Shown here in pieces: positions 15,878 to 44,995 of a DNA stretch of 64,000 nt. Every line of letters starts with the position of its first letter. Position 1 is the first letter of the stretch. This DNA comes from Escherichia phage UGJNEcP3. The position numbers and the translations under genes were made by a program. Location of the stretch: sequence record OV876907; one strand, written 5' to 3'. The notes beneath the pieces were generated by a model, which had not been told where the DNA came from, did no database searches, and worked only from the letters and a program-made list of their open reading frames with translations.

Positions 15878-15885
15878 TATAAATA
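15878..15885 (+). promoter_or_regulatory. T4-type late promoter TATAAATA (gene 20)
   Basis: Exact TATAAATA directly after gp19 stop. Confidence 0.55.
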
Positions 15886-15894
15886 GAATTATCA

Positions 15895-15910: not shown

Positions 15911-15933
15911 TATCCCATTCATCGGAGACTCTA

Positions 15934-17762: not shown

Positions 17763-18190
17763 TGTTCCTTATCCCTGATGATTACGAATTAACTCTAGAA
17801 AGCGTAGAGGCCAAAATTCCAGAAGCACAGGGACGTTTTGCTGCTCTTTCTGAAGCGCTCGAGAAAAGCGATATAAATAATCTTGTAGAGAACATGATTG
17901 CTGAAGGCGATATCGAATGTGCTATCGCTCTTGGTTCTTTAAATGAATCAATGGCTCTTAACGAATTTATCGTTAAACACGTTTCCTCTAAAGGTGTGCT
18001 TACTCGTACTAAAGATATTAAAACCCGTCAGCGTAACGCATTCCAAACGACGGGTTTATCTAAAGCAAAGCGCCGTCAGATTGCTCGCAAAGCATCTAAA
18101 ACCAAACGTGCTAATCCATCTACTCAAGTACGTGCCGAACGTAAGCGTAAGAAAGCCCGTTCTAAACGTAAAGCTTTTGGACTTAACTAA
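17762..18190 (+). CDS. 68: prohead core protein gp68
   Basis: ORF track; basic C-terminus; position between 67 and 21. Confidence 0.8.
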
Positions 18191-18825
18191 TGAAACCTGA
18201 ATTGCTCATCGAACATTGGGGACAACCAGGTGAAATTATCAATGGGGTTCCTATGTTGGAATCTCATGATGGAAAAGATTCTGGACTTGCCCCAGGCCTT
18301 TATATAGAAGGCATTTTCATGCAAGCAGAGGTAGTTAACCGTAATAAACGCCTTTACCCAAAACCTATTTTGGAAAAAGCCGTTGCCAACTACATGGCGG
18401 AACAAGTTGCTACTAAACAAGCTTTAGGAGAATTAAACCATCCACCTCGTGCTAACGTTGACCCTATGCAAGCTGCTATCATTATTGAAGATATGTGGTG
18501 GAAAGGTAATGATGTTTATGGACGTGCACGTATCATCGAAGGTGACCATGGCCCTGGTGATAAACTAGCCGCAAATATCCGAGCTGGCTGGGTTCCTGGT
18601 GTTAGTTCTCGTGGTCTAGGTTCTTTAACCGAAACCAACAAAGGATATAAGCGTGTAAACGAAGGTTATAAATTAACCGTCGGTGTTGATGCAGTATGGG
18701 GTCCATCTGCTCCTGATGCTTATGTAACTCCTAAACAAATTACAGAATCACAAACGGTAGATACCGATACCAGTGCCGATGACGCCTTTATGGCTCTCGC
18801 AGAGGCCATGAAAAAAGCGTTATAA
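18190..18825 (+). CDS. 21: prohead core scaffold protein and protease gp21
   Basis: ORF track; size and position as T4 gene 21. Confidence 0.88.
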   Translation: MKPELLIEHWGQPGEIINGVPMLESHDGKDSGLAPGLYIEGIFMQAEVVNRNKRLYPKPILEKAVANYMAEQVATKQALGELNHPPRANVDPMQAAIIIEDMWWKGNDVYGRARIIEGDHGPGDKLAANIRAGWVPGVSSRGLGSLTETNKGYKRVNEGYKLTVGVDAVWGPSAPDAYVTPKQITESQTVDTDTSADDAFMALAEAMKKAL

Positions 18826-18828
18826 ATA
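18821..18828 (+). promoter_or_regulatory. T4-type late promoter TATAAATA (gene 22)
   Basis: Exact TATAAATA overlapping gp21 stop, 27 nt upstream of gp22 ATG. Confidence 0.55.
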
Positions 18829-18855
18829 TTATTATCTAAACAACAGGACTACAAA

Positions 18856-19671
18856 ATGCTTAAAGAACAACTGATCGCCGAAGCACAGAATATTGATGCT
18901 TCCGTTGCTCTTGACAGTATTTTCGAATCAGTTAATATTTCTCCGGAAGCAAAAGAAACTTTCGGCACTGTATTCGAAGCTACCGTCAAGCAACACGCCG
19001 TGAAACTGGCTGAATCTCACATCGCTAAAATCGCTGAAAAAGCGGAAGAAGAAGTCGAGAAAAATAAAGAAGAAGCTGAAGAAAAAGCTGATAAGAAAAT
19101 CCAAGAAGCTGCCGGTCGTTTCCTTGACCACGTTGCTAAAGAATGGATGGCTGAAAACCAGCTGGCTGTTGATAAAGGTATTAAAGCCGAACTGTTCGAA
19201 TCCATGTTGATGGGTATGAAAGAACTGTTTGTTGAACACAATGTGGTTGTTCCAGAAGAAGCAGTAGATGTTGTTGCTGAAATGGAAGAAGAACTCCAAG
19301 AGCAGAAAGATGAAACCGCCCGTCTGTTCGAAGAAGTTGGTAAGCGCGATGCGTATATTAATTACGTACAGCGTGAAGTTGCTGTTACGGAAGCAACTAA
19401 AGACCTGACCGAATCTCAAAAAGAAAAAGTCAGTTCTCTGGTAGAAGGCATGGATTATTCCGATGCATTCGGTAAAAAAATTGGCGCTATTGTTGAAATG
19501 GTTAAAGGTCAGTCTGACGTTGAAAACCCAATCACCGAAGCCGCTATAAATAAAAATGTAGACGATGCTGCGGCACTGAATTACATTTCAGAAGCAGTTG
19601 AAGAAAAAGGCGCTAAGCCTACCCTGTCCTTCGCGGACCTGTCTGCAATCGCAGCATCACGAATTTCTTAA
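18856..19671 (+). CDS. 22: prohead core scaffold protein gp22
   Basis: ORF track; Glu/Lys/Ala-rich coiled-coil-like sequence; TATAAATA at 18821-18828. Confidence 0.88.
   Translation: MLKEQLIAEAQNIDASVALDSIFESVNISPEAKETFGTVFEATVKQHAVKLAESHIAKIAEKAEEEVEKNKEEAEEKADKKIQEAAGRFLDHVAKEWMAENQLAVDKGIKAELFESMLMGMKELFVEHNVVVPEEAVDVVAEMEEELQEQKDETARLFEEVGKRDAYINYVQREVAVTEATKDLTESQKEKVSSLVEGMDYSDAFGKKIGAIVEMVKGQSDVENPITEAAINKNVDDAAALNYISEAVEEKGAKPTLSFADLSAIAASRIS
19545..19552 (+). promoter_or_regulatory. candidate late promoter TATAAATA inside gene 22 (possible gene 23 promoter)
   Basis: Exact TATAAATA about 140 nt upstream of gp23 ATG; no consensus box in the short 22-23 spacer. Confidence 0.3.
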
Positions 19672-19692
19672 TTTAATAAGGTTATACAACAC

Positions 19693-21252
19693 ATGAAAAA
19701 GAATGCATTAGTTCAAAAATGGTCCGCTCTGCTGGAAAACGAAGCCCTTCCTGAAATCGTGGGTGCTTCTAAACAAGCTATCATCGCTAAAATTTTCGAA
19801 AACCAGGAACAAGACATCCTGACTGCCCCGGAATACCGTGATGAAAAAATCTCTGAAGCATTTGGTTCTTTCCTGACCGAAGCTGAAATTGGTGGTGACC
19901 ACGGTTATGATGCTACCAATATCGCAGCTGGCCAGACTTCTGGTGCTGTAACTCAGATTGGGCCGGCAGTAATGGGTATGGTTCGTCGTGCTATTCCTCA
20001 TCTGATTGCTTTTGATATTTGTGGTGTTCAGCCTCTGAATAACCCTACCGGCCAGGTATTTGCCCTTCGTGCAGTTTATGGTAAAGACCCTATCGCTGCT
20101 GGCGCTAAAGAAGCTTTCCATCCGATGTATTCTCCGGACTCTATGTTCTCTGGTCAGGGTGCTGCTGAATCTTTCGAAGCACTGGCTGCAAGCAAAGTTC
20201 TGGAAGTTGGTAAAATTTATTCTCACTTCTTCGAAGCTACCGGTGCTGCACACTTCCAGGCTGTTGAAGTTGTAACCGTTGATGCTGCTGCTACCGATGC
20301 CGCTAAACTGGATGCTGCTGTTACCGCTTTGATTGAAGCAGGTAAGTTGGCTGAATTGGCTGAAGGTATGGCTACTTCTATCGCTGAACTCCAGGAAGGC
20401 TTTAACGGTTCTACCGATAACCCGTGGAACGAAATGGGCTTCCGCATCGACAAACAAGTTATCGAAGCTAAATCCCGTCAGCTGAAAGCAAGCTACTCTA
20501 TCGAACTGGCACAGGACCTTCGTGCAGTACACGGTATGGATGCAGATGCTGAACTGTCTGGTATCCTTGCTACTGAAATTATGCTCGAAATCAACCGTGA
20601 AGTTATCGATTGGATTAACTACTCTGCACAGGTTGGTAAATCTGGTATGACCAACACCGTTGGCGCTAAAGCTGGTGTGTTTGACTTCCAGGACCCGATT
20701 GATATCCGTGGTGCTCGTTGGGCCGGTGAGAGCTTTAAAGCCCTTCTGTTCCAGATTGATAAAGAAGCAGCCGAAATCGCTCGTCAGACCGGTCGTGGTG
20801 CTGGTAACTTCATCATCGCTTCCCGTAACGTAGTTAACGTACTGGCTGCAGTTGATACTTCTGTAAGTTATGCAGCTCAAGGTCTGGGTCAAGGTTTCAA
20901 CGTTGACACAACCAAAGCAGTATTTGCTGGTGTTCTTGGTGGTAAATATCGCGTTTACATCGACCAGTATGCACGTTCCGATTACTTCACCATCGGTTAT
21001 AAAGGCGCTAACGAAATGGACGCAGGTATCTACTACGCTCCGTACGTTGCACTGACCCCGCTGCGTGGTTCCGATCCGAAGAACTTCCAACCGGTAATGG
21101 GCTTCAAAACTCGTTACGGTATCGGTATCAACCCGTTCGCTGACCCGTCTGCACAGGCTCCTACCAAACGTATTCAGAGCGGTATGCCTGACATCGTTAA
21201 CAGCCTTGGTCTGAATGGTTACTTCCGTCGCGTATATGTTAAAGGTATCTAA
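19693..21252 (+). CDS. 23: major capsid protein gp23
   Basis: ORF track; strongly biased codon usage; size and position as T4 gene 23; terminator hairpin downstream. Confidence 0.95.
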   Translation: MKKNALVQKWSALLENEALPEIVGASKQAIIAKIFENQEQDILTAPEYRDEKISEAFGSFLTEAEIGGDHGYDATNIAAGQTSGAVTQIGPAVMGMVRRAIPHLIAFDICGVQPLNNPTGQVFALRAVYGKDPIAAGAKEAFHPMYSPDSMFSGQGAAESFEALAASKVLEVGKIYSHFFEATGAAHFQAVEVVTVDAAATDAAKLDAAVTALIEAGKLAELAEGMATSIAELQEGFNGSTDNPWNEMGFRIDKQVIEAKSRQLKASYSIELAQDLRAVHGMDADAELSGILATEIMLEINREVIDWINYSAQVGKSGMTNTVGAKAGVFDFQDPIDIRGARWAGESFKALLFQIDKEAAEIARQTGRGAGNFIIASRNVVNVLAAVDTSVSYAAQGLGQGFNVDTTKAVFAGVLGGKYRVYIDQYARSDYFTIGYKGANEMDAGIYYAPYVALTPLRGSDPKNFQPVMGFKTRYGIGINPFADPSAQAPTKRIQSGMPDIVNSLGLNGYFRRVYVKGI

Positions 21253-21268
21253 GATATAACCTTATTAT

Positions 21269-21286
21269 GGGAGACCGAAGTCTCCC
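21269..21286. terminator. terminator between gene 23 and the convergent minus-strand gene
   Basis: GGGAGAC-CGAA-GTCTCCC followed by T-rich ATTCTTGTTTCT. Confidence 0.6.
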
Positions 21287-21301
21287 ATTCTTGTTTCTGT
21301 A

Positions 21302-21568
21302 CTATGCAATCTTAACTCGGCGGTTGATGATATCACGGAAGTCGATACGATTTTCTTGGATTTTCAGCCAGTTACCAGATTTGTCTTTGGTATGGGCAGA
21401 GTATTCACCGTTCCACCAGAAGTCAGTTTCATAAGCCAGAGCTTCGTATTTCTTAACCAATGCATTAACTGCATTACCGTTAGGATTGGTACCGAATTTT
21501 TCTACCAGAGCTTTGATGTCTTTGTCAAGGTTAGAAAGCGTGGTACGGATAAAGTTTAATTTGTTCAT
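21302..21568 (-). CDS. hypothetical protein, minus-strand early-type gene between 23 and 24
   Basis: ATG 21568 preceded by GAGGAG and a GTTTACA-N17-TACTATAG promoter; track start 21583 lacks an RBS; not recognised. Confidence 0.6.
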   Translation of the reverse strand: MNKLNFIRTTLSNLDKDIKALVEKFGTNPNGNAVNALVKKYEALAYETDFWWNGEYSAHTKDKSGNWLKIQENRIDFRDIINRRVKIA

Positions 21569-21597
21569 TTTTAATCTCCTCATGTTTTGATAGGTCT

Positions 21598-21627
21598 ATA
21601 GTAACACGACGCTTTTTGTGTGTAAAC
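21598..21627 (-). promoter_or_regulatory. early-type promoter GTTTACA-N17-TACTATAG
   Basis: Upstream of minus-strand gene 21302-21568. Confidence 0.5.
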
Positions 21628-21633
21628 CACTTT

Positions 21634-21641
21634 TATAAATA
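21634..21641 (+). promoter_or_regulatory. T4-type late promoter TATAAATA (gene 24)
   Basis: Exact TATAAATA 29 nt upstream of gp24 ATG. Confidence 0.6.
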
Positions 21642-21670
21642 AAATTATATTCTCAATAAGGAAAATAGCA

Positions 21671-22951
21671 ATGGCTAAAATTAACGACCTTTTAAAAGAG
21701 TCGACCATTACTTCGAGTTCTTCGATTGGTCGTCCAAATTTAGTAGCTTTAACCAGAGCTACGACCAAACTGGTTTATACCGACCTTGTAGCTCAGCAGC
21801 GTACTAACCAACCTTTGGCTGCTCTATATGGTATCAAATATCTTACAGAAAAAGACGAATTATCTTTCCAGACGGGTGCTACTTATTCCGGCGCAGTATC
21901 CGCTAAAGACCGTGCCACTATCCCAGTTTTCACTGCAGGTGCTGTTTATGCTAAAGATGATTTGTTCCAATTTGAAAACGTAGTTTATAAAGCTTTGGTA
22001 GCAACCCCATTTGCCGGTGCTACTGGTGATGAATACGAACAACTTCAAGAAGCTATTGTTAAGTTGACTATCCGTATTATGTCCGAAGCCGCACTGACTG
22101 AGCGTTTTGAAGGCCCTCAGGATGTAGATATTTCTGAAGCTAAATTCATCGTTAATAAATGGAACGCTCCGGTTAAATCCCGTAAGTTGAAGAGTACTGT
22201 TACCGTAGAACTGGCTCAAGACCTCGAAGCAAATGGTTTCGATGCCCCTAATTTCTTAGAAGACCTCCTGGCTACTGAAATGGCTGATGAAATCAACAAA
22301 GATATTCTTCAGTCCCTGGTTACGGTTTCTAAGCGTTATAAAGTTGAAGGTTTGTGTGATGATGGCTTAATTGACCTGAGTTATGCTAACTCACCGGAAG
22401 CTTCTCGCAAGCTTTATGAATTGGTGTGTGAAATGGTTTCTCATATCCAGCGCGCAACCTCTTATACGGCAACTTATGTAGTAGCGAGTACTCGTGTAGC
22501 TGCTGTTCTGGCTGGTTCCGGATGGTTAAGACATACCCCACAGAACGACAAATATCTTTCTGCAAGTGCATACGGATTCCTGGAAAATGGTTTGCCTCTG
22601 TATTGTGATACTAACACGCCGATTGATTATGTTACTGTAGGGGTTAAAGAGGAATTTGGTGGGAAGGAAGCGGTAGGTTCTCTGTTCTATGCACCTTATA
22701 CCGAAGGCCTTGATTTGGCTGACCCTGAACATGTGGGTACGTTTAAAGTGGTCGTTGACCCGGAAAGTTTACAACCTTCCATTGCATTAATGGTTCGTTA
22801 TGCATTGGCTGCCAACCCGTATACAGTTACTGCCGATGATAAACAAGCCCGTATTATTGATGCAACTAATATGGATTTGATGGCGGGACGTTCTGATATG
22901 TCTGTATTGCTTGGTGTGAAACTTCCTAAAGTTTTGACTGAATTAAATTAA
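21671..22951 (+). CDS. 24: capsid vertex protein gp24
   Basis: ORF track; TATAAATA at 21634-21641; size and position as T4 gene 24. Confidence 0.9.
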   Translation: MAKINDLLKESTITSSSSIGRPNLVALTRATTKLVYTDLVAQQRTNQPLAALYGIKYLTEKDELSFQTGATYSGAVSAKDRATIPVFTAGAVYAKDDLFQFENVVYKALVATPFAGATGDEYEQLQEAIVKLTIRIMSEAALTERFEGPQDVDISEAKFIVNKWNAPVKSRKLKSTVTVELAQDLEANGFDAPNFLEDLLATEMADEINKDILQSLVTVSKRYKVEGLCDDGLIDLSYANSPEASRKLYELVCEMVSHIQRATSYTATYVVASTRVAAVLAGSGWLRHTPQNDKYLSASAYGFLENGLPLYCDTNTPIDYVTVGVKEEFGGKEAVGSLFYAPYTEGLDLADPEHVGTFKVVVDPESLQPSIALMVRYALAANPYTVTADDKQARIIDATNMDLMAGRSDMSVLLGVKLPKVLTELN

Positions 22952-22952
22952 C

Positions 22953-22979
22953 AAAAAGGGACCTCACGGTCCCTTTTTT
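22953..22979. terminator. bidirectional intrinsic terminator between gene 24 and rnlB
   Basis: AAAAA-GGGACC-TCAC-GGTCCC-TTTTTT; A-run and T-run on either side. Confidence 0.75.
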
Positions 22980-22982
22980 CAT

Positions 22983-23990
22983 TTATTTGGATACTAGTTC
23001 AATCCATACTGCTCGTAAGGTATCTTTTACGCACTCAACGAGCTGCTTTTTAACTTCAACAGGATTTTCCGCATCAGTTAATTCTAATTCTTCACGGGCA
23101 GCTTCTTCTAAGATATCTTGGACGGTCAAGCCCATTACCTTTCCAAAATCCTTCGGCGTTACTTCACCAATCTTACTGATAACATTGTTAATACGGTTAA
23201 CAGTCACATAATCAGTGAATTGCCACATCAAGTCCATATCATCTTGGGATAAAACCACTGCAACTTTAATAGGCTTATCAGACTTTTTCTTCTCGCTGAA
23301 TTTAGAGTTCTTACATTTAATTGCTACACGATTTCCATTAGGAAGCCAGATCGGAACATCAGGTTTAAGTACAAAGCCTTCAGCCGTAAATACTTTACCT
23401 TCTACCTTAGGAATAAAGTCTGTAGAGTTTGCAATAGTTAAGCCAGCGTTATCTACTGCAAAATTATAATCAGGAACAACAGAATCAAAATCATTAGGAA
23501 GTTTAATAAGGTCTTCAAAGCTACCAGTAGCCAAACATGGCGCAACCTTAAACTTATGGATAATGCAAAAAGCTTCCATCAACGTATCAGTCAGAACAGA
23601 TTCAGTGCCATCTTCCTTAGTAACTCGGATATCGAACACATAAAAGTCTTTATCACCGTAGTCCACATTCTTCTGGATACCTGTCCCAGCGAATTCGCCA
23701 TAAATCTGGTATGACCGGTAATTAATCGATTCAATTAGATGTTGAACGGATTTAATAGAATCAGCATAGTTCTTAAGTACAATTTCATAACCATAGAAAT
23801 CTTCAGCAGGGAGGATAGGGCCAGTGCGCTTGGCGCATGTGACGCAGTCACGTTCTATGATTAAACTAAAGTTGGTTCCATGAATCTTCTCACGTGCTAC
23901 CCATTCACCGCCAGTCAAACCATTAGTACGGAGTTTTTCGATAAACTTACTGTTGTAGTGGTTTTCGAGACTGCTATATTTCTTGAACAT
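22983..23990 (-). CDS. rnlB: RNA ligase 2 (RnlB)
   Basis: ORF track; [21 protein letters not shown]-terminus and nucleotidyltransferase motif EKIHG as in T4 Rnl2; convergent terminator shared with gene 24. Confidence 0.9.
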
Positions 23991-24104
23991 AAATCACCAT
24001 AATAAATATAATTAAATAGAAGAGCTAGTAGTCTTCTGTCACCAAGCCAAATGGTTTAACGGAAGGACCTAGACCCATTATAACACATCTAAATTTAAAG
24101 CATA

Positions 24105-24314
24105 TTACTTTGAACCAGAATGCTCTTTGCGCCGAACCTTGTTGTTCAATCTTTTACGATAAACAACCTTTTCTTTCGCTTTAAATTTGACCTTGGCTTG
24201 TTCTACATCAACCCATGCTTTGGCCATGTCCTTAGCGGTCCCGCCCATTTTTTTAGCAATTTCTATAAAATTCAACCCAGATTCGTGTAAAAAATGTACT
24301 TTAACCTTATCCAT
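24105..24314 (-). CDS. small helix-turn-helix protein, hypothetical
   Basis: ORF track; HTH-like segment GLNFIEIAKKMGGTAKDMAKAW then basic tail, resembling IS-family HTH proteins by eye. Confidence 0.5.
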   Translation of the reverse strand: MDKVKVHFLHESGLNFIEIAKKMGGTAKDMAKAWVDVEQAKVKFKAKEKVVYRKRLNNKVRRKEHSGSK

Positions 24315-24401
24315 AACAATTCTCTCGTTGAGTTGGTAAAACCCATCTTAACATAGAATTTTTAACTTGTAAACAGGAATTTTTGTACTTTAATGCAAAA
24401 T

Positions 24402-24415
24402 GGGCCTTGCGGCCC
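24402..24415 (-). terminator. hairpin terminator downstream of hoc
   Basis: Minus strand GGGCC-GCAA-GGCCC then ATTTTG; same 14-mer as the hairpin after gene 8. Confidence 0.45.
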
Positions 24416-24419
24416 GTAA

Positions 24420-25268
24420 TTAATAAACGTAATCGTATATAATACCAGCTTCTAAAGCGGTGCGATGAATAATTCGACCATTACGAGATTCTTGTACATC
24501 AACCTCTGGATAGTCGGTAATCATTTTTTGAAGTGTGTATCGGTGCAAATAATACGGGCTATCTGGGTCATCGGTTTTCCAGTCTTGCCCTGCAAGAGTC
24601 ATTTTCTGAATTTCATCCATAACCCACCAACCACACCAGATATAAGCTGAATTACGTACTGGCAATGGGTGTACATAAGGCAGTTCACCATCAGGGGTAG
24701 GTGCTACTTTAGCCGTGACTGTTACATTACCGGGTTTTGTGACAGTCGTGGGGTTATAATCAGTCGCTGAAACCACAACAGAAACTTCAATTACCTGGGA
24801 ACCTTCGGTGCTTGTATCGATTGCTAAAGTATCCGTGGTGCCAACTACAGGAGAACCGTCTTTCTTCCAAGAATAGGCAAAAGTAGCTCCACTCGGTGCG
24901 CCGACTACATCCGCTTTAAAAGAAGCTGGAGTGCCTTCCGGAACATTAATTGATTCTGGGGTTAATGTAACAGAAACACCAGACATTGTTTTATTCTGGA
25001 TAGTTAAAGTCGTCTCAGCTTCAGCAGTTTCCGGTTCGCCGTCCGCTGGTGTAGTTGTTGCAACAACTTTAATGGTCTTGCTGCCTGCTGGACCAACAGC
25101 AACATAATCCATTGCAGCAGTCACAGAAGATTGAGGAACACCATCAACGGTCCAGACAAATGATTCGGTACCTTCAGCTGCAGAACCGGAACCGGTCGCA
25201 GTGAAATTGGTTGTTGCTCCAATAACGGCCGTAGCCGCCAAAGGAGAAATATCTACGGTATAAGCCAT
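24420..25268 (-). CDS. hoc: outer capsid decoration protein Hoc
   Basis: ORF track; Thr/Val-rich Ig-like repeats plus C-terminal capsid-binding-like segment (YVHPLPVRNSAYIWCGWW); position next to inh; shorter than T4 Hoc as I recall it. Confidence 0.8.
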   Translation of the reverse strand: MAYTVDISPLAATAVIGATTNFTATGSGSAAEGTESFVWTVDGVPQSSVTAAMDYVAVGPAGSKTIKVVATTTPADGEPETAEAETTLTIQNKTMSGVSVTLTPESINVPEGTPASFKADVVGAPSGATFAYSWKKDGSPVVGTTDTLAIDTSTEGSQVIEVSVVVSATDYNPTTVTKPGNVTVTAKVAPTPDGELPYVHPLPVRNSAYIWCGWWVMDEIQKMTLAGQDWKTDDPDSPYYLHRYTLQKMITDYPEVDVQESRNGRIIHRTALEAGIIYDYVY

Positions 25269-25277
25269 AATAAACCC

Positions 25278-25949
25278 TTATTTTAAAGTGACAAAAGATG
25301 AGTTACGAGTTTCTCGTACTAGAACAGACCCATTACGATTGATGTAATAAATCAAACTGAATAGAGTTTGGTGCGCAGTGGGATGTGGGAAAGCAGTTGG
25401 ACGTTCTTTCCAATCTGGAGTCTCGGCAATCCACTGATAAATCCACCAAGGAACGGTGCAATAACCTGGGTTCTTACCGATAAGCAAAAGATTAGGACTG
25501 AAGTTTTCAGATAAAGAGAATACAGGTTTTTCAGATTCGATAACCTTGGTTACAGCCTCTTTGAATTTCTCTTCGTCAAATGGAACATCCTCTTCAATAA
25601 TCTCTACCTTAGGAAGTTCGGCTACCTCTATTACTTCAACAACTGCCTCAGGGGCATCGAACAACAGGGTTGCTTCTTCTTTAGCTGGTTCTACACCTTC
25701 GATAAAATCGTTATCACCGGTGAGTTCGTCAGCAGCATCAATCAAATCAGAAATAGACAAACCTTCAGTTTCTGGGAGTGGTTCGTCAGCCAAGGCTTTA
25801 AGGCCCTCAGAGATATCGATAATCAAATTATCAAACGAACGGGTTTTCTTAAGTTTTAAACCGAACTGTTCGCCGTATTCGATTAACTTAGCTTTAGCTT
25901 CTTTTTTATCTTCGAGTGCACGAAGCTCTTCAATATATTGAGTATCCAT
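25278..25949 (-). CDS. inh: prohead protease inhibitor Inh
   Basis: ORF track; acidic protein at the T4 inh position between hoc and uvsW; minus-strand TATAAATA upstream. Confidence 0.7.
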   Translation of the reverse strand: MDTQYIEELRALEDKKEAKAKLIEYGEQFGLKLKKTRSFDNLIIDISEGLKALADEPLPETEGLSISDLIDAADELTGDNDFIEGVEPAKEEATLLFDAPEAVVEVIEVAELPKVEIIEEDVPFDEEKFKEAVTKVIESEKPVFSLSENFSPNLLLIGKNPGYCTVPWWIYQWIAETPDWKERPTAFPHPTAHQTLFSLIYYINRNGSVLVRETRNSSFVTLK

Positions 25950-25968
25950 AATTAGTCTCTTGTTGGTG

Positions 25969-25990
25969 TATAAATATAACTATATTTATA
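25969..25990. promoter_or_regulatory. divergent late promoters: TATAAATA for uvsW (plus) and for inh (minus)
   Basis: TATAAATA at 25969-25976 (plus) and its reverse complement at 25983-25990, each about 30 nt from its ATG. Confidence 0.55.
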
Positions 25991-26004
25991 ACTGAGAATT
26001 ACTT

Positions 26005-36590: not shown

Positions 36591-36618
36591 AAAAAAAGGA
36601 GAGCGTACGCTCTCCTTT
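36591..36618. terminator. bidirectional terminator between gene 54 and the end of the alt-side minus-strand unit
   Basis: AAAAAAA-GGAGAGCG-TA-CGCTCTCC-TTT; 9-bp stem. Confidence 0.7.
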
Positions 36619-36624: not shown

Positions 36625-36915
36625 TTATTTACGGAACGAAATGAAACCTGCTGTGGTCATTAGTGGTTGCTTTTTAACAAACACCGTGACCGAAATAGGA
36701 GCTTCAGATTCGAGTTGTCCTGTCACTACACCGTTAAAAATGTTTTCGGTTTGTTCTGGATAAGAAAAATTCTCAACAGGTCGGATATCAAACTGTTTGT
36801 CTTCACCAAAAACTCGACGTAATTCATTACCTACGGCACTGTCAAACTCTTCGGAAGCAGGGATAACGTTTTCAACTACCAGTTCTTGACCATTAAAACG
36901 GAATGCAGATTTCAT
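36625..36915 (-). CDS. hypothetical protein downstream of the alt array
   Basis: ORF track; GAGGAG RBS; own GTTTACA-N17-TACTAT promoter whose -35 overlaps the Alt-A stop codon. Confidence 0.6.
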   Translation of the reverse strand: MKSAFRFNGQELVVENVIPASEEFDSAVGNELRRVFGEDKQFDIRPVENFSYPEQTENIFNGVVTGQLESEAPISVTVFVKKQPLMTTAGFISFRK

Positions 36916-36943: not shown

Positions 36944-36973
36944 ATAGTACCACATCCTTGTGGTGTTGTAAAC
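36944..36973 (-). promoter_or_regulatory. early-type promoter GTTTACA-N17-TACTAT
   Basis: Upstream of the 36625-36915 gene; -35 overlaps the Alt-A stop codon. Confidence 0.5.
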
Positions 36974-39096
36974 TACATTTTGAATTTATTTGATAAAGAA
37001 GAGATATCCAAAGACGCGGCAAGGATTTCCATAGCTTCATTGCTTTCAGAAATGGATTCACTAATCAAGAACTGACTGAATCCATCCATCAGGCGAACTT
37101 CGCCAGTTTCCATCAAATGGTCACCATCGTAAACAGATTCGCTGAGCTCTGAAGGAGGTGTTACGGTAGCTTCCATAAGGTATTTGTGAGATACTCTATC
37201 ATTCATGGCAAAAGACGCTACTTTATCAACCTTCAACAATAATCCACGCGGAAGGATAATTTCTGCTTCTTCAGCATATTCTGTAAGGTCGCCAGGAGCG
37301 ATAACTTTAACTGCTTCAGCACCTCGAATAACCATACCAATTTCAGCAATTCTATCCGCAGGGCCTTCAGGTGCAATTGGATTACCAAACTCGTCTTCTT
37401 CCCATTCCACCTCTTCGTCATCGACTTCACCCACATCAGATGAACTACCACTAGCCAATTTAAACAACTCATCGGCTGAGGATAAAGAACCTTCATCACC
37501 AACAAAAACTGCTTGGTTGTCGAGGGCCATATAATTTTTACCAAATTCGCCAAAGATGTTAGGCTTTAATGAGGCCGACACAAAGTTCTTAAAGTAAAAT
37601 GTTTTGTTATCGATATTATGACGCAGAATTTTGTATGGTAAATCCTGACCACGATACAAAATAGTACCCTTAGGAAGTTTAATACCCTTAGTAAATGCTG
37701 AGTCTAAATCCTTAATCAATTTAATAGCCGTTGTATTGTTTTCGGATTCAGGTTTACCTAAAAGGAATAAGTTCATAGGAGCATATTCAGCTGCGCAATA
37801 TTCAATAATAGCATTGCTTTCGTCTTTGGTTAAGTCCTTAGGTTTAATGAGCTCACCTGAATAAGCATATGCATCACTAATAGAATCGTTAATTAGTTTA
37901 TAAACGGCTTCCATAGCGAAAGCAATTCGAGAGGCCTTTTCTGAAGGGGAGCCTTTAAAACGAGCGCTCAAGTTATTAACAATTTTCTTAATAATATCCA
38001 GACTATTGGTGGTATTGATTTGCGAAAGGCCACTTAAAAGTCTATCGACTTCTGTATTAAAAAATGCCATATTATTAGAGTAAATTTCAAACCCTTGTTT
38101 ATCTCTATTAGCATAATTTAGTTTAAATTTACTATCAGTCATTAAAGCGTGTGTGAGAGCAATAGTGTATCTAAAGTTGGCAAGGTCCTCGCTCTTAGAT
38201 TTAAACTGAGAAGCCTGGCGCATTTTGGTAATAGCACCTTTTTTAAAGTTCTGACTAATCTGTTCAATACCTTCATTCTCAGGGCCTTCAGCCGTGTGAA
38301 CCGGTACAGAAGCTTCAAACTCGTTATAAACCTGCAATTCTTTAGGGGACAAAGTTTCAGGCTCAGCAGTAGAATACTGCGCGGCCGCTGCCATACGACG
38401 CGAAATCTTAGTACGAGTAATGACAGCCTTATCAGTACGTTTCTCTTCAACTTGTGCAATAGATGCCGCTACGGCTTCTACTTTACTTACGGCCTGGCCG
38501 GTTTTCTTAGAAACATACACTTCGCCAACTTTAGACTCGACTTTAGTATAAAGATTGGCATCAATTTCAGGCATACCCTTGATATCTTCAATATTAGCAC
38601 CACGACGTACTAAAAGAACGTAGGTATGTTTTCCGCTGAATTGGAACATGTGGTCAACAACTTTAAACTTACCACCGGTACGGGCCATAGCCAAACGAGC
38701 TAATACGCGCTGAACGGTAGGGCCTTTACCTTTCATTTTCTTAGTAGGGAAACGGAATAAAACCGCGTCCATTTTAAGTTTGTTTATTTGTTCATATATG
38801 GTATCGAAAATGGTGTTCAGTGTACCGAGTGGATCGGTACCCAAACCACCCTTGAGTTCTGCCGGAGCGCCTTTAGCAGATAAACTCATTAAGATAACAT
38901 GGACGTACTTATCGCCATTTTTAACCATCTTAATAGCGTCGCCTTCAGACGCATAAGATACCATACGCGCTACTAAATTGTCATTACCAGGAGCATGTAC
39001 CGCAAAAATCTGCGGTACGCCTGAGCCAGGTTTAAGATTTGTTACCGGATAGTTTTTAGCGGAATCGCTATCAAAAACTTCGTTTAAATTTTCCAT
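36973..39096 (-). CDS. alt: Alt-like ADP-ribosyltransferase, paralogue A (third in transcription order)
   Basis: N-terminus MENLNEVFDSD...; ART motifs YRGQ / VSASL / EIILPRG in the C-terminal third; central segment unlike the other two copies. Confidence 0.8.
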   Translation of the reverse strand: MENLNEVFDSDSAKNYPVTNLKPGSGVPQIFAVHAPGNDNLVARMVSYASEGDAIKMVKNGDKYVHVILMSLSAKGAPAELKGGLGTDPLGTLNTIFDTIYEQINKLKMDAVLFRFPTKKMKGKGPTVQRVLARLAMARTGGKFKVVDHMFQFSGKHTYVLLVRRGANIEDIKGMPEIDANLYTKVESKVGEVYVSKKTGQAVSKVEAVAASIAQVEEKRTDKAVITRTKISRRMAAAAQYSTAEPETLSPKELQVYNEFEASVPVHTAEGPENEGIEQISQNFKKGAITKMRQASQFKSKSEDLANFRYTIALTHALMTDSKFKLNYANRDKQGFEIYSNNMAFFNTEVDRLLSGLSQINTTNSLDIIKKIVNNLSARFKGSPSEKASRIAFAMEAVYKLINDSISDAYAYSGELIKPKDLTKDESNAIIEYCAAEYAPMNLFLLGKPESENNTTAIKLIKDLDSAFTKGIKLPKGTILYRGQDLPYKILRHNIDNKTFYFKNFVSASLKPNIFGEFGKNYMALDNQAVFVGDEGSLSSADELFKLASGSSSDVGEVDDEEVEWEEDEFGNPIAPEGPADRIAEIGMVIRGAEAVKVIAPGDLTEYAEEAEIILPRGLLLKVDKVASFAMNDRVSHKYLMEATVTPPSELSESVYDGDHLMETGEVRLMDGFSQFLISESISESNEAMEILAASLDISSLSNKFKM

Positions 39097-39099
39097 TAT

Positions 39100-41148
39100 T
39101 TACCCTTGGGTGAATTTTTCTGGGGTTTCGTCAAAATTAATACATGAAGCTAAAATAGGCATTATATCCACCTTGGTCGATTTGACGAATGAATCAAAAG
39201 ACACACGGTTGTCGGTCTCTGTTTCTACGCCTTGGTAAACAACCAATTCGCCGGTTTCCATCAATGCATCACCATCATAGATAACCGCATTTTCTGCTAG
39301 TTGGTCTGTGGTCTGGATATCAGCTTCCAATAATTTGGTGTTGTAGTTTCCTTTATATGAGGCATCTGTAATTTTAGTAATCTTAACAGTAGTTCCACGT
39401 GGAAGAATAACCTCTTGTTCTGTTGGAGAACCTGACAATTCACCGGGCACAATTACGTTAATAGAGTCTGCACCGGAAATTTTCCAACCGATGTTCATCA
39501 TTGTATTTTCGGAACTCGTCAGCATACTTGGAAGAACAATTTCATTATTGCCTTGGAAAGATGTCCCAGCGCGATAGTCCTGATGAACTGCGGCCATTGC
39601 GACGTTTGATACCCAGCCGCCAAAGATAATCGGCTTAAGGGACGTTGATACATAGTTCCTGAAATAAAACAATTTTGAGTGTTTGATTTTATCAAAAGTG
39701 TTAACATTTAAATATTGACCACGCCAAAGTGTAATATCAGGTGGCAATTTATGGCCAATTTCAAATGCCGCATCCATATCATTAATTACTTCAATTACAC
39801 GATAACTATCAATAAATTCTGCATCCTCTTCATAATAATTACCCAACAAATAATTATTAACATCGGTATAATATTGGCCACAATAAGAAGAAATAGCCTC
39901 ACGCTGCCCATACTCAAATCGATTATCGCTATAACTGGCTGTAAAATGCATAACACTTTCTGACGCTTCATTAGCAAAGTCGGTAACAGCAGCACTTATA
40001 CGTTGAGCATACTCTTGTTCCCAAAGCTCTGCTGCATATTCTGCCGCATCCATATTAGGAGGAGCCTCATTCATTTTTCTTTCGATAAATGCAGCTTTGC
40101 GAAGGTTAAGAACCTCTGCACATGATTCGGCAAAAATCTGCATCTGCTTCATACTGCCGACAGGAGCACGTTTAAGTTCACGATGCATACGGTTAAAAAT
40201 TGGGTCAGAGTCTTCGACTCGAATTTCTTCTTTCCAAACACCGTTTGCTCGCATAGCCATATCTGCCGCGCGCATACGCTCCATAGTATTCGTTTCAGAA
40301 GGCTGAATAAAAATTTCCAGTTCTTCATAATCATCGATAAGTTCTGCTGTTGCTGGGGCACTAAATTTTGATGCCTCTGCATCAATCTCATTCCAACCTT
40401 CCGGAACTTCATCTCGAGGAGAATACTGGGCTGCGGCTACAGCACGCCTAGAAATCTTGGTAGTAGTAATAACGGCCTTATCCGTACGTTTTTCTTCGAC
40501 TGCCGCTATACTAGCAGATAGTGCTTCTATTTTGGTTACCGATTGGCCTGTTTTCTTGGATACATAAACCTCACCAACTTTAGACTCAACCTTAGTGTAA
40601 AGGTCTGCATCAATTTCAGGCATACCTTTTATGTCCTCAATATTAGCTTGTTTACGGACCAGTAAAACGTATGTATGTTTGCCTGTAAATTGATACATAT
40701 CATCGACAACTTTAAACTTGCCGCCAGTACGAGCCATCGCCAAACGTGCCAATACACGTTGAACAGTAGGACCCTTACCTTTCATTTTCTTGGTAGGGAA
40801 CCGGAAAAGAACTGCATCCATTTTAAGTTTGTTTACTTGTTCGTATACAGTATCAAAAATGGTATTCAGCGTACCAAGTGGGTCAGAACCTAACCCACCT
40901 TTCAACTCGGCTGGGCTACCCTTAGCAGACAAACTCATCAAAATAACATGAACATATTTGTCACCCGGCTTAACCATTTTAATAGCGTCTCCTTGAGACG
41001 CATAAGATACCATACGAGCAACCAGATTATCATTACCTGGTGCTTGGATAGAGAAAATCTGTGGAATACCGGGACCCGGTTTAAGATTTGTTACTGGATA
41101 GTTTTTAGCGGAATCACTATCAAAAACCTCATTTAAATTTTCCATCAT
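39100..41148 (-). CDS. alt: Alt-like ADP-ribosyltransferase, paralogue B
   Basis: N-terminal about 230 aa near-identical to paralogue A; motifs WRGQ / VSTSL / EVILPRG; start may be the second ATG (41145). Confidence 0.8.
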   Translation of the reverse strand: MMENLNEVFDSDSAKNYPVTNLKPGPGIPQIFSIQAPGNDNLVARMVSYASQGDAIKMVKPGDKYVHVILMSLSAKGSPAELKGGLGSDPLGTLNTIFDTVYEQVNKLKMDAVLFRFPTKKMKGKGPTVQRVLARLAMARTGGKFKVVDDMYQFTGKHTYVLLVRKQANIEDIKGMPEIDADLYTKVESKVGEVYVSKKTGQSVTKIEALSASIAAVEEKRTDKAVITTTKISRRAVAAAQYSPRDEVPEGWNEIDAEASKFSAPATAELIDDYEELEIFIQPSETNTMERMRAADMAMRANGVWKEEIRVEDSDPIFNRMHRELKRAPVGSMKQMQIFAESCAEVLNLRKAAFIERKMNEAPPNMDAAEYAAELWEQEYAQRISAAVTDFANEASESVMHFTASYSDNRFEYGQREAISSYCGQYYTDVNNYLLGNYYEEDAEFIDSYRVIEVINDMDAAFEIGHKLPPDITLWRGQYLNVNTFDKIKHSKLFYFRNYVSTSLKPIIFGGWVSNVAMAAVHQDYRAGTSFQGNNEIVLPSMLTSSENTMMNIGWKISGADSINVIVPGELSGSPTEQEVILPRGTTVKITKITDASYKGNYNTKLLEADIQTTDQLAENAVIYDGDALMETGELVVYQGVETETDNRVSFDSFVKSTKVDIMPILASCINFDETPEKFTQG

Positions 41149-43236
41149 TTACCCTTGGATGAATTTTTCTGGGATGCCATAGAGGTCTATGCATGAAGCC
41201 AAAAGAGACAGTACATCAACCCGTGTAGATTTAACAAATGAATCAAAAGATACAGGGCTTTCGGAAGTATCGAAATCATCTTGATATACGACCAACTCAC
41301 CGGTTTCCATTAGTACGTCACCATCATATACCACAGATTCTTGAAGCTCATCTGATGTCATAACTTCAGCTTGAATAAATTTATTGTTAGACACCGTCCC
41401 GGAACCAGTATTGGCTGATGCATCCACGATTTTATCTATTTTTACAAGTAGCCCGCGTGGTAAAATTATTTCCTTTTCGTTGGCATGCATGCTTAATTGG
41501 CCAGGATAAATCACGTTAACCTTATGAGCGCCACTAATAGCCCAGCCAACATCAACACGGATTTGATCCGGCGCATACATATGTGTACGCACTTGACTAT
41601 CAGAGATGGTAACGCCTTCGTCATTATTATCAATGTTTAATTCTTTTCGAACATCATCGGAAGCAAGACCAATAGCCGCATTCTCTTTAAAGCCACCAAA
41701 AATGATTGGAGCTAATGAGGTTGAAACATAGTTTCTAAAATAGAATACCTTATTTTTAACTAATGCTTCGTAGATAGGCGCGCGCAAAGATTGTGCTCTA
41801 TAAACCATTATTCCTTCAGGTAAACGGTCTCCATTTTTAAAGGCAGAATCCATTCCATCAATAGCACGTTTAACTTCGCTTTCGTCCAAAACTTCATAAA
41901 AGCCTGGTTTATAACGACCAAGAAGGACATTGTTAATATCAATATAAGCTGAAGAGGCGTATTCTCTGATAGCTCGTTTTTCTGCAAGTGTATATTGTTT
42001 AGGGTCTCGAGATGTTGTTATATTAAGAATTTCTCTAGTTGATTCTATAGCGTATGTATACATTATCTTAGACAAGAATGAAGACTTACGTTGTTTCCAT
42101 ACTATTTCACTGTTTTCATTCAATATCTCTTTTTCCAAATGGAAATTGTCTTTTCTATAATCTTCAAACCAATCACTTTTAATAGATTCTGCGATTTCAT
42201 TAGCAACTTCAACAAAGGCAGCTAAAGCTTTAACTGACGTGGTTTTTTCATTTTTAATTTTTTTGACAAATGTTTCTAAAGAAGAGTTAATTTTATCACC
42301 GTAAGAAACTTCATCCGCAAATTTAAATGAATCATCCATAGTATTATAAATTTTAAAATCAATAGCCGTAGCCAACTTATCCTTAGCTGTTTCAGATGAT
42401 AACGATAGTTCAACTTCGGCCGCTTGTGGAATTAATTCTGCCGTAGCAGGCGCACTGAACTCACTAGCAGTTTGCTCGTATTTCTGAAACAATTCACCTT
42501 CATTACGATCTGATTCTAATGACTGGCTTGCTGCAATAGCACGTCGCGAAATCTTAGTCTTGGTTATAACCATTTTATCGGTGCGACGTTCTTCAACCTT
42601 AGCAATACTGCCGGCAATAGCAGTTTCTTTAGTAACCTGCAGGCCTTCTTTTTTAGAAATATAAACTTCACCAACATCAGAATCTACCTTAGTGTATAAT
42701 TCGGAATTAATTCCTGGCATACCCTTAATATCTTCAATGTTAGCTTGTTTACGAACTACTAGGATGTAAGTATGTTTACCGGTAAATTGGTACATAGCCG
42801 GAACTACTTTAAAACGTCCACCTGTTTTCTGTGCTACCAAACGTTGGATAATCCGTTGAACAATAGGCCCTTGACCTTTCATTTTCTTAGTAGGGAAACG
42901 GAACATCACTGCATCCATACGAAGCTTTTTAACTTGGTCATAAACCACATCAAAAATAGTATTAATCGCATCTACGGGAGTAGGGCCAAGGCCACCCTTA
43001 AGTTCGGCTGGAGTACCTTTAGCTGAAAGGCTCATAAGGATAACGTGGGCATATTTATCGCCTAATTTAACTTGTTTAATAGCATCACCTTCAGAAGCGT
43101 AGGATACCATACGCGCTACTAATTGGGATTCTGCATCGCCAATCTTCCAAATCTGAGGTACTTTAAGTTTTGGGTTCAAGTTTACTGTAGGCAGAGTGCC
43201 TTCGGACTCAAACACTTCATTTAATTGTTCGGTCAT
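41149..43236 (-). CDS. alt: Alt-like ADP-ribosyltransferase, paralogue C (first in transcription order)
   Basis: N-terminus MTEQLNEVFESE...; motifs YRAQ / VSTSL / EIILPRG; C-terminal tail shared with paralogue B; AAGAGGAA RBS. Confidence 0.8.
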   Translation of the reverse strand: MTEQLNEVFESEGTLPTVNLNPKLKVPQIWKIGDAESQLVARMVSYASEGDAIKQVKLGDKYAHVILMSLSAKGTPAELKGGLGPTPVDAINTIFDVVYDQVKKLRMDAVMFRFPTKKMKGQGPIVQRIIQRLVAQKTGGRFKVVPAMYQFTGKHTYILVVRKQANIEDIKGMPGINSELYTKVDSDVGEVYISKKEGLQVTKETAIAGSIAKVEERRTDKMVITKTKISRRAIAASQSLESDRNEGELFQKYEQTASEFSAPATAELIPQAAEVELSLSSETAKDKLATAIDFKIYNTMDDSFKFADEVSYGDKINSSLETFVKKIKNEKTTSVKALAAFVEVANEIAESIKSDWFEDYRKDNFHLEKEILNENSEIVWKQRKSSFLSKIMYTYAIESTREILNITTSRDPKQYTLAEKRAIREYASSAYIDINNVLLGRYKPGFYEVLDESEVKRAIDGMDSAFKNGDRLPEGIMVYRAQSLRAPIYEALVKNKVFYFRNYVSTSLAPIIFGGFKENAAIGLASDDVRKELNIDNNDEGVTISDSQVRTHMYAPDQIRVDVGWAISGAHKVNVIYPGQLSMHANEKEIILPRGLLVKIDKIVDASANTGSGTVSNNKFIQAEVMTSDELQESVVYDGDVLMETGELVVYQDDFDTSESPVSFDSFVKSTRVDVLSLLASCIDLYGIPEKFIQG

Positions 43237-43258: not shown

Positions 43259-43266
43259 TATTTATG
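43259..43266 (-). promoter_or_regulatory. near-consensus late promoter (CATAAATA) upstream of the first alt paralogue
   Basis: 7 of 8 match to TATAAATA, about 23 nt upstream of the Alt-C ATG, just after a terminator hairpin. Confidence 0.35.
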
Positions 43267-43272
43267 CCAGAA

Positions 43273-43288
43273 AAGGCCCGAAGGCCTT
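43273..43288 (-). terminator. UUCG hairpin between the small post-ligase ORF and the first alt gene
   Basis: Minus strand AAGGCC-TTCG-GGCCTT then TTTTCT. Confidence 0.45.
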
Positions 43289-43290
43289 TA

Positions 43291-43473
43291 TTAAAGTACT
43301 AACAACGTACGGTACACTTCAAATTTAGGACCCTTTTCATAGCGGTCGAAATTATCTTTGAAATCGGCGAACGCGATTTCATTTTCAAATTCAAGGACAA
43401 TTTGGGACACTGCGGTGGAGACATCGCCACCTTCTTTATATCCAATAACCACGGTTTCTAAATAAACTTTCAT
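43291..43473 (-). CDS. small hypothetical protein between gene 30 and the alt array
   Basis: ATG 1 nt after gene 30 stop (TAAtATG); 60 aa; track start 43572 would overlap gene 30; terminator hairpin follows. Confidence 0.45.
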   Translation of the reverse strand: MKVYLETVVIGYKEGGDVSTAVSQIVLEFENEIAFADFKDNFDRYEKGPKFEVYRTLLVL

Positions 43474-43474
43474 A

Positions 43475-44995
43475 TTATAACCCAGTTTGAGACCAATCAC
43501 CGAATACATCTTCAAATGTATCAGCTTCTGTTTTATCGAAACGCCAACCTTTAATGATAAGTAAGAAAACACCTACAGTATCGGTACGCCCTTTAGAATG
43601 AACCCAACCATTACATTCACAATCAGCGATACGTCCAATCAATTTACCTTCACGTGCTTCCTTCATCAGTCGTTCACGGTCCATATCAGGACGGTCTTCT
43701 AAAGGAATCAATATTTTCTTTTTAGTCTTAAAGTCTTTAGTGTGAGTTGTGTCTTTAAAGCCTGAACCACAGTCACTTGTAATTCGACGACACCGCGATA
43801 CTAACTCAACACCACCAATCTTGTTAGGGTCTTTAGAGTGTTCATAATAACCTACTACTTCTAAAGCGATATCGATTACTTCTTTGAACTTGATAAGATT
43901 CTTAGAACGGCGGTTTTCCCAATAGGAGTCCATGTTCTTAAGGATAATGCCTTCCAGACCTTGGTCGACATATTTCTTATAAACTTCACGAGCTTCTTTA
44001 AGATTATAGACCCATTGGTTTTCAATTGCTTCAACACGAGTTTTACCATGCAATACGACATTATGCCCTACCATATGTTCTAAGGCGGCAAAACGTACGT
44101 CGTATTTCTCGCCTTTAATTTTACCTTCAGAGTACACCACTTCAAGAGGAACATAGTCCCATGCCTGAAGAACCATACCAGCGGCTTCAGTAGCTGAAAT
44201 AGTACCATTCAGGGATTTGTTAGCTAATCCGTTTGAAGTGCTACGGTCTACAGCGAATTCTTTAGCCTTGCTTAGTTCAGGCATGTCTTCTTCAAACATA
44301 CTAAACAAGTCATTAGCTTCAGGTTGCTTAACCACCGGTTCATGGTAAACTAATTCACCATCAATTAATACGCCACCGGGATGTTTCTGACGTGCATCTT
44401 CAGTCATAACCATGAGCTCTTCAGCCAATAGATTAAGCCCTTGATATTCGTTACCGCCACGTGTAAGGAATGTTACGCCGTCGTTACGAACTTCAGCAAA
44501 ACATCGAGCCCCATCAGCTTTTAATTGAGCGAACGCTGGCCATTTAATATTTTTCTTAATCAGAGCTTCGTCATAAGAACTAGCCAACATTTGAGGTTGT
44601 TCAGGGATTAAACCTTTCCAAACCTTGTTAGCAATAGAAATTGATGCGCCACATTCAAGGTCACGCATCATTACGCGACGTAATACCTCAGCGTCCGGAC
44701 CTTTAGCATCAGCAATGATTTGGGCTAGTTCTTCAATAGCCGCATTACCTGTAATCTTACGGGTGGCTAGTGTGAACTCAGCGAAATCAAGAAGGTCTTC
44801 AAGTGTAATCATACCAAAGGATTGAGACGTAAATCCAGGTTCTGGCCACTTTTTAATGCCGTAATTCAGACGACGGGTATAGGCCATACGATAAACACGT
44901 TTCAGAAGCTCATTGTCCTTTTCACGAGCAATAATAGCTTCTTTAGCTTTAGTAGAATCAATAGCAGCAATTTCGTTTAAAATATCTAAAATCAT
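43475..44995 (-). CDS. 30: ATP-dependent DNA ligase gp30
   Basis: ORF track; MILDILNEIA N-terminus and adenylation motif KADGARC collinear with T4 DNA ligase. Confidence 0.93.
   Translation of the reverse strand: MILDILNEIAAIDSTKAKEAIIAREKDNELLKRVYRMAYTRRLNYGIKKWPEPGFTSQSFGMITLEDLLDFAEFTLATRKITGNAAIEELAQIIADAKGPDAEVLRRVMMRDLECGASISIANKVWKGLIPEQPQMLASSYDEALIKKNIKWPAFAQLKADGARCFAEVRNDGVTFLTRGGNEYQGLNLLAEELMVMTEDARQKHPGGVLIDGELVYHEPVVKQPEANDLFSMFEEDMPELSKAKEFAVDRSTSNGLANKSLNGTISATEAAGMVLQAWDYVPLEVVYSEGKIKGEKYDVRFAALEHMVGHNVVLHGKTRVEAIENQWVYNLKEAREVYKKYVDQGLEGIILKNMDSYWENRRSKNLIKFKEVIDIALEVVGYYEHSKDPNKIGGVELVSRCRRITSDCGSGFKDTTHTKDFKTKKKILIPLEDRPDMDRERLMKEAREGKLIGRIADCECNGWVHSKGRTDTVGVFLLIIKGWRFDKTEADTFEDVFGDWSQTGL

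Follow-up and report, generated by a model that had tools for sequence, protein, structure and literature searches.

Why would one phage genome carry three alt genes side by side? Alt is a textbook injected phage enzyme; in T4, approximately 40 copies are packed per capsid and ejected into the host, where Alt ADP-ribosylates host RNA polymerase alpha and other host proteins, and it has lately been tied to counter-defence (MazEF, Mokosh). Most work treats Alt as a single gene. We analysed a 64,000-nucleotide (nt) stretch of Escherichia phage UGJNEcP3 (record OV876907; hereafter the window), in which three abutting minus-strand open reading frames (ORFs) of 695, 682 and 707 amino acids (aa) occupy 36973-43236, spaced 0 and 3 nt apart, exactly where a preliminary description of the sequence had placed them. 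We named them in transcription order Alt1 (695 aa; 41149-43236, start MTEQLNEVF), Alt2 (682 aa; 39100-41148, start MMENLNEVF) and Alt3 (707 aa; 36973-39096, start MENLNEVF). We consider it likely that they are three functional Alt paralogues, packaged in the head and injected, that share a delivery frame and carry distinct, ancient payloads which have been reshuffled or lost among phages.

Three intact alt genes at a T4-like locus

Full-length pairwise BLASTP among the three proteins gave E values of 0 to 1e-151, PF03496 matched the C-terminal third of each (Pfam, E 1e-17 to 1e-28) and phrog_802, the Alt PHROG, covered each from end to end (E 1e-248 to 1e-256), so the array is real and far beyond chance. 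PF26846 (Tevenvirinae_ADPRT), the Pfam family of the N-terminal domain, and PF03496 are on record for 120 of 120 homologues, including the identical UGJNEcP4 protein P0059. A PDB sequence search with Alt1 returned no match at E values up to 1, no NCBIfam model matched Alt1, Alt2 or Alt3, and the isolated N-terminal domains had no meaningful match at E values up to 10 in a copy of Pfam without PF26846.

The interval is 100% identical to Escherichia phage UGJNEcP4 (OV877765.1), a Dhakavirus, one of the JS98-like Tevenvirinae, and phage KIT01 is 96.7% identical across the whole 6.3 kb. Both records already label all three ORFs as Alt-like RNA polymerase ADP-ribosyltransferases, in agreement with the preliminary description, and the neighbourhood is that of T4: plus-strand gp48 and gp54 are followed on the minus strand by alt.-3, the alt genes, alt.1 and DNA ligase gene 30. 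The array is an intact three-gene set of a known family in a known arrangement, annotated in an identical public record. What we add is a map of the modules, an account of how they recombined that also covers the origin of T4 alt.-1/alt.-2, and a lead on a possible GNAT-like core fold of the N-terminal domain.

Three-gene arrays are annotated in at least eight relatives, UGJNEcP4 and the Dhakaviruses KIT01, QL01, C6, fDHCT2, MX01, AnYang and WG01; these last seven, together with JS98 (altA/altB), have the same genes at the same locus. Two-copy Dhakaviruses differ from the window in that Alt2 is missing and the last gene is a chimera of Alt2 and Alt3. Published accounts of tandem alt duplication go back to 2006, for RB49, 44RR and T4 (PMC1524935), and such duplications are also described for JS98, Bp7, Ac42 and ZZ1 (PMC4177764). 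The preliminary description had allowed that the arrangement might be widespread and already characterised in close relatives; it is indeed present, annotated and published there, and the literature that we searched held no biochemical study of the extra copies.

A conserved frame around divergent payloads

Alignment with T4 Alt and among the three copies split each protein into four parts, an N-terminal domain (N-domain), a central helical segment (mid), an ADP-ribosyltransferase (ART) domain and a C-terminal tail, preceded by a few residues that would form an N-terminal propeptide. In Alt1, the putative propeptide (residues 1-7; 43216-43236) ends at LNE-7 and is followed by the N-domain (8-243; 42508-43215) and the mid (244-411; 42004-42507), then the ART domain (412-633; 41338-42003) and, after LQE-633, a candidate C-propeptide of 62 aa (634-695; 41149-41337). 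The corresponding parts of Alt2 are residues 1-7, ending at LNE-7, the N-domain (8-245; 40414-41127), the mid (246-405; 39934-40413), the ART domain (406-619; 39292-39933) and, after LAE-619, a 63-aa C-propeptide (620-682; 39100-39291). Those of Alt3 are residues 1-6, ending at LNE-6, the N-domain (7-244; 38365-39078), the mid (245-420; 37837-38364), the ART domain (421-653; 37138-37836) and, after LSE-653, a 54-aa C-propeptide (654-707; 36973-37137). All of these lie on the minus strand.

Conservation is spread unevenly over the four parts. The N-domains (residues ~8-243) are 89% identical between Alt2 and Alt3 and 67-69% identical between Alt1 and either, while identity falls to 12-26% in the central segment (~170 aa, residues ~245-415) and is 33-42% in the ART domain (~412-633 in Alt1 numbering). 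In the C-terminal tail (last 54-63 aa), Alt1 and Alt2 are 61% identical, and Alt3 shares 36-44% with either. The preliminary description had recognised one near-identical N-terminal pair and a variable centre of about 250 aa. Both features are there, but the pair consists of the 682- and 707-aa proteins, with the 695-aa protein as the diverged one, and the low-identity zone is the shorter one given above.

AlphaFold2 models of Alt1 and Alt3 (mean predicted local distance difference test (pLDDT) scores of 82.5 and 75) have the same predicted layout: the N-domain is alpha/beta, the mid consists of helices only, which lie at similar positions in both models and form a domain of the same size, and the ART domain is followed by a poorly ordered tail. 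The ART domain of Alt3 additionally bears, between S-x-S and E-x-E, a 64-aa acidic insertion (residues 517-580; 37357-37548, minus strand) with 18 D/E against 2 K/R, which has pLDDT below 50 and is predicted to be disordered. This insertion occupies the loop region where the ART alignment varies most (columns 561-600), and it is kept among Dhakaviruses.

The catalytic residues of all three copies align with those of T4 Alt, ModA and ModB, in which R, S and E-x-E are invariant: R480, S505-T-S507 and E587-K-E589 in Alt1; R476, S501-T-S503 and E577-Q-E579 in Alt2; and R482, S507-A-S509 and E610-A-E612 in Alt3. Across 71 family members, the S and both E are invariant and the R nearly so, and in all three Alts the E-x-E is followed by (I/V)ILPRG. 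The S-A-S of Alt3, against S-T-S in Alt1 and Alt2, is also the state of ModA. No copy has lost the catalytic Arg, Ser or Glu, and the R-S-E motifs first reported near the C-termini stand as quoted. The ratio of nonsynonymous to synonymous substitution rates (dN/dS) of the payload, that is, mid plus ART, is 0.09 for Alt1, 0.13-0.15 for Alt2 and 0.02-0.04 for Alt3, whose payload is 97-100% conserved across all Dhakaviruses examined. Because these values (0.02-0.15) denote strong purifying selection among orthologues, we regard Alt1, Alt2 and Alt3 as working genes.

We grouped the mids by all-against-all BLAST of the excised segments from 129 family members. Those of Alt1, Alt2, QL01 Alt1 and T4 Alt fell into one connected component of 91 sequences (main type), and the Alt1 and Alt2 mids share intermediates over ~140 residues, for example P0097 (E 2e-15 and 3e-9), which indicates that the two central segments are homologous along their length. 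Comparison by hhalign among Alt3-type, WG01/SP18-type and main-type mids found no similarity (probability <3%). The early impression that the centre differs in each copy thus holds for Alt3 at the sequence level and fails for Alt1 against Alt2. Each isolated mid matched phrog_802 at positions ~245-415 (E 1e-16 to 1e-19), and we did not count these matches as proof of homology because the profile was probably built from these same subtypes. We compared the Alt1 and Alt3 structures through a common third-party BFVD model, that of SP18 Alt, which has another mid type; both models align to it globally, with template modelling (TM) scores of 0.78 and 0.76, respectively.

The mid and ART domain are exchanged together

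Comparison of UGJNEcP4 Alt1 with QL01 Alt1 located the boundaries of the exchanged unit. Nucleotide identity is 92-98% over nt 1-720, 37-73% over nt ~740-1860 and 87-100% from nt 1861, so that one breakpoint coincides with the end of the N-domain and the other lies shortly before the C-terminal cleavage site. In QL01-type phages, the Alt1 payload is of another allele (mid 28-34% and ART 61-62% identical), and so an allele has been swapped at Alt1 between near-identical phages, with mid and ART exchanged together as one unit. Because of where these breakpoints fall, we take the N-domain and C-propeptide as the conserved frame and the whole mature effector part as the variable cassette.

This result bears directly on the explanation favoured in the preliminary description, in which every copy delivers the same catalytic core and only a non-homologous central targeting module of ~250 aa differs. 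Central identity is the lowest of any segment, as that explanation would have it, and no sequence similarity of the Alt3 mid to the other two could be detected. However, the ART domains have diverged about as far as the family permits, shared intermediates join the mids of Alt1 and Alt2, the unit that recombines between phages includes the ART domain, and the best-conserved part of the proteins is the N-domain rather than the catalytic core. We consider this explanation unlikely, and prefer a shared delivery frame with a distinct payload in each copy.

The payloads can be followed well beyond the Dhakaviruses. The Alt1 payload is RB69-Alt-like (65% identity to RB69 Alt), and a T4-like metagenomic contig, L012, has the order ligase, Alt (697 aa), Alt (694 aa), alt.-3, gp54. 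Both of its N-domains are T4-type (65-88%; 88% and 67% identical to that of T4 Alt), and its second Alt gene is intact and resembles Alt3 in payload (56%) and C-propeptide (64%). These comparisons indicate that the payload types are ancient and that the N-domains follow phage lineage. WG01 carries a fourth payload type, SP18-like, and the slot-2 gene of Bp7 has a T4-like mid behind an Alt2-type N-domain.

The same contig bears on a remnant in T4, where the record marks alt.-1/alt.-2 as an old duplication of the start of alt. We found T4 alt.-2/alt.-1 (L001:5066-5451) to be 91-93% identical to residues 1-56 and 62-116 of the second Alt of the contig (L012:4339-6423) and only 56-62% identical to T4 Alt itself, and at the DNA level ~1.76 kb of that second gene is missing from T4. 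T4 alt.-1/alt.-2 are the stump of an Alt3-type gene from which this ~1.76 kb was apparently deleted.

Copies have been lost within the Dhakaviruses as well. The Alt2 gene is absent from JS98, dhaeg and IME281. We typed the last alt gene of IME281, WG01, JS98 and dhaeg at 200 positions diagnostic for Alt2 or Alt3, and in each phage it begins as Alt2-type and changes to Alt3-type (L004:3001-5127, and 3001-5124 in each of L006, L007 and L008). The switch lies at nt 267-273 in IME281 and at nt 357-375 in WG01, and JS98 and dhaeg have a blurred, older junction. Since the breakpoints differ among phages, we conclude that unequal crossover within the conserved 5′ module removed Alt2 on several occasions and that the two-copy Dhakaviruses arose by deletion.

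Within one genome, be it that of a Dhakavirus, a T4-lineage phage or Shewanella phage Thanatos, the N-domains of paralogues are alike, as would be expected if they had evolved in concert or were co-adapted to the head core of their own phage. We considered and rejected recent gene conversion between the Alt2 and Alt3 N-domains: their 89% aa identity is accompanied by only 78% nt identity, and only about half of the identical residues share a codon.

Processing, packaging and transcription

T4 Alt is cut by the gp21 protease at ITE-6 and LTE-619, as determined by mass spectrometry, and the second cut removes 63 C-terminal residues (PMC5694885). The columns aligned to these sites hold, as motif matches, LNE-7, LNE-7 and LNE-6 at the N-terminal position and LQE-633, LAE-619 and LSE-653 at the C-terminal position of Alt1, Alt2 and Alt3, respectively. 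The fit of the N-termini to the prohead protease rule, already pointed out in the preliminary description, is therefore joined by a second L-x-E. Among 129 sequences of the family, L is found in 120 and E in 127 at the N-terminal site; at the C-terminal site, 116 have L or I and 125 have E. The window encodes a gp21-type prohead protease (18190-18825, plus strand; PF03420 Peptidase_S77, E 8.6e-103), whose gene adjoins the scaffold, major capsid protein and portal genes and which, by analogy with T4, would be expected to cut the L-x-E sites of all three Alts. We infer that the three Alts are packaged, cleaved and injected.

A different possibility is that Alt2, Alt3 or both are left out of the head, acting in the producing cell like ModA and ModB or serving as non-enzymatic parts of the head core. 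Packaging of Alt2 and Alt3 in this phage is a prediction from sequence, and the disordered acidic insert of Alt3 is unusual. Against this, every copy retains the N-domain, the C-propeptide and an L-x-E motif at each of the two positions, none of which ModA and ModB have, and their catalytic residues are intact and constrained. We regard such a role as very unlikely, and packaging of all three as the better reading.

The elements flanking the array suggest how it is transcribed. A GC-rich hairpin, AAAGGCCTTCGGGCCTTTT (43271-43289, minus strand), read directly from the sequence, ends the upstream alt.1 unit; T4 alt is preceded by the same hairpin, and a terminator upstream of alt is conserved in five of six T4-like genomes (PMC1524935). 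The hairpin is followed by a late-promoter-like box, CATAAATA (43259-43266, minus strand), 22 nt upstream of the Alt1 ATG, and at the equivalent place, after the same hairpin, T4 has the canonical late promoter TATAAATA. We found no late box with at most one mismatch immediately ahead of the starts of Alt2 and Alt3. The last gene is a 96-aa alt.-3 homologue (36625-36915, minus strand; phrog_1739, E 2.6e-42) in the same position as T4 alt.-3 and JS98 alt.-3, and a terminator-like hairpin with a 10-bp stem, five GC pairs and a T-run (36595-36618, minus strand) closes the alt unit opposite the gp54 end. Because there is a box at Alt1, none at Alt2 or Alt3 and a strong terminator after alt.-3, a single late transcription unit running from Alt1 through Alt2 and Alt3 to alt.-3 would be the simplest reading.

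Other features of the neighbourhood were also recorded. The gene at the alt.-3 position of L012 bears DUF5498. Upstream of Alt1, a mechanically called 93-aa ORF with a GTG start (43291-43572) overlaps the ligase gene, and only its residues 34-93 match the alt.1 family (phrog_1976); the true alt.1 start is probably an ATG near 43473. The TATAAATA octamer occurs 16 times in the window against 6.1 expected, 12 of the 16 on the plus strand, and 11 of these 12 fall within 7.5-26 kb (7525-26000), among head and neck genes.

Discussion

The nearest known system is T4 Alt (gpAlt, NP_049811; PHROG 802), which Alt1, Alt2 and Alt3 resemble in length, four-part architecture, R-S-ExE ART domain, L/I-x-E at both cleavage positions, genomic position, and the hairpin and putative late-type box upstream. 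T4 has one alt copy and a truncated remnant, whereas the window has three intact copies. Identity to T4 Alt is 42-45% for the N-domains, 17-27% for the mids and 42-58% for the C-terminal tails; for the ART domain it is 54% in Alt1, 38-39% in Alt2 and 36-40% in Alt3, which also departs from T4 Alt in its S-A-S for S-T-S and in its 64-aa acidic insert. T4 ModA and ModB have the R-S-ExE ART core in common with the three Alts at 16-19% identity, but they are ~200 aa long, lack the N-domain, helical mid and C-propeptide, and are not packaged. The ART toxins of the C3, Vis, iota and VIP2 types, which are arginine- or asparagine-specific, are only 17-25% identical and are secreted, in contrast to the phage-head delivery of Alts.

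We propose that the three Alts would be made from one late unit, running from the late-promoter-like box through alt.-3 to the terminator. Each would be a pro-enzyme consisting of a 6-7-aa N-propeptide, a ~240-aa N-domain, a payload of helical mid plus ART, and a 54-63-aa C-propeptide, and the gp21 protease would cut it after L-x-E at both ends, as in T4. The mature proteins would be mono-ADP-ribosyltransferases packaged in the head and injected with the DNA. The N-domain and C-propeptide would together form a lineage-specific delivery frame, kept alike among the copies within a genome, and the same frame would supply the homology that drives recombination. Payload cassettes are reshuffled whole between phages, or lost by unequal crossover, and each type is held by purifying selection. 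The proposal draws on what the sequences show: that the proteins are homologous and their motifs conserved, where the modules begin and end, which recombination events took place, and that selection constrains the payloads.

Several points weigh against this proposal. The Alt3-type mid has no profile-profile similarity to the main type (hhalign probability 2.8%), and its common origin with the other mids, suggested by the similar predicted helix positions and by TM scores of 0.76-0.78, is likely but unproven. The box CATAAATA (43266-43259) has one mismatch to TATAAATA, and so its promoter function is putative. The N-domains within a genome may be alike because each is co-adapted to the head core, and not through gene conversion; their synonymous sites are well diverged. 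The presence of the three Alts in the virion, their cleavage and their enzymatic activity are putative, being read from sequence, and the idea that the payloads differ in the host proteins they modify is pure conjecture. The preliminary description had seen the array as a diversified set of injected effectors, which we find plausible.

The least probable alternative is that the array merely raises the amount of one Alt activity per virion, since copies kept for dosage would be expected to stay similar throughout: the three do have the same catalytic motifs, architecture and presumed expression unit, and Alt2 is dispensable in nature, several Dhakaviruses being without it, but the payloads fall into old types that have diverged widely, each is kept across genera (Alt3-type 56% identical in L012, Alt1-type 65% to RB69), and each is under strong purifying selection, all of which makes this reading very unlikely.

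A frame of constant delivery parts around distinct payloads recalls polymorphic toxin systems (PMC3482391), which likewise pair a conserved delivery part, there an N-terminal trafficking region, with a variable payload, there a C-terminal toxin, and recombine at conserved flanks. The alt locus differs from them in having no immunity genes and no silent stand-alone cassettes, the only downstream gene being the conserved alt.-3, and also in that a C-terminal propeptide helps to frame a payload which is always an ART of one family. On this comparison, we would place the resemblance in logic only and would not count the alt locus as a member. A bolder reading, which we put forward tentatively and rate below even odds, is that the alt locus of Tevenvirinae works as a slot system for polymorphic effectors, in which mid plus ART cassettes are swapped, stacked or dropped by homologous recombination within a lineage-locked frame of N-propeptide, N-domain and C-propeptide, and each type acts against a different host target or defence. 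T4 Alt helps to evade Mokosh type I, and the Alt of another phage cannot replace it (bioRxiv 10.1101/2025.11.20.689424). This finding would fit the slot reading and, because Alt variants differ in countering Mokosh type I, makes payload-specific function plausible.

We found the N-domain at 1,822 places in 1,201 phage records and, among 1.84 billion proteins, in only 69 representative clusters. It is always at the N-terminus and almost always followed by PF03496; nearly all of the 69 clusters are 600-712 aa long and have PF03496. Four distant proteins with this domain, P0171 (1142 aa), P0173 (541 aa), P0170 and P0174, either contain no ART that Pfam detects or are extended by long additional C-terminal stretches, and may be other payloads on the same delivery domain. 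Beyond coliphages, tandem Alt pairs were seen in Aeromonas phage Asfd_1 (L011:4074-7257) and in Shewanella phage Thanatos-2 (L010:3977-7800), where the locus adjoins a long tail fibre gene, not the ligase gene, and the two N-domains are 80% identical.

The N-domain possibly has a GNAT-like core fold, and it may, more boldly, be a second enzyme, an acyltransferase. Pfam acetyltransferase families gave no match to it at E values up to 10, and in place of the acetyl-CoA motif Q/R-x-x-G-x-G/A it has only a partial loop, L-K-G-G-L-G, before a long helix; this loop is nearly invariant in the family.

If the payloads do differ in target, Dhakaviruses would deliver a small arsenal with their DNA, before any phage gene is expressed, and this would bear on host range and on the choice of therapeutic phages. 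A payload bounded by an N-domain and a cleavable C-propeptide also suggests a place at which foreign proteins might be inserted for packaging into the head.

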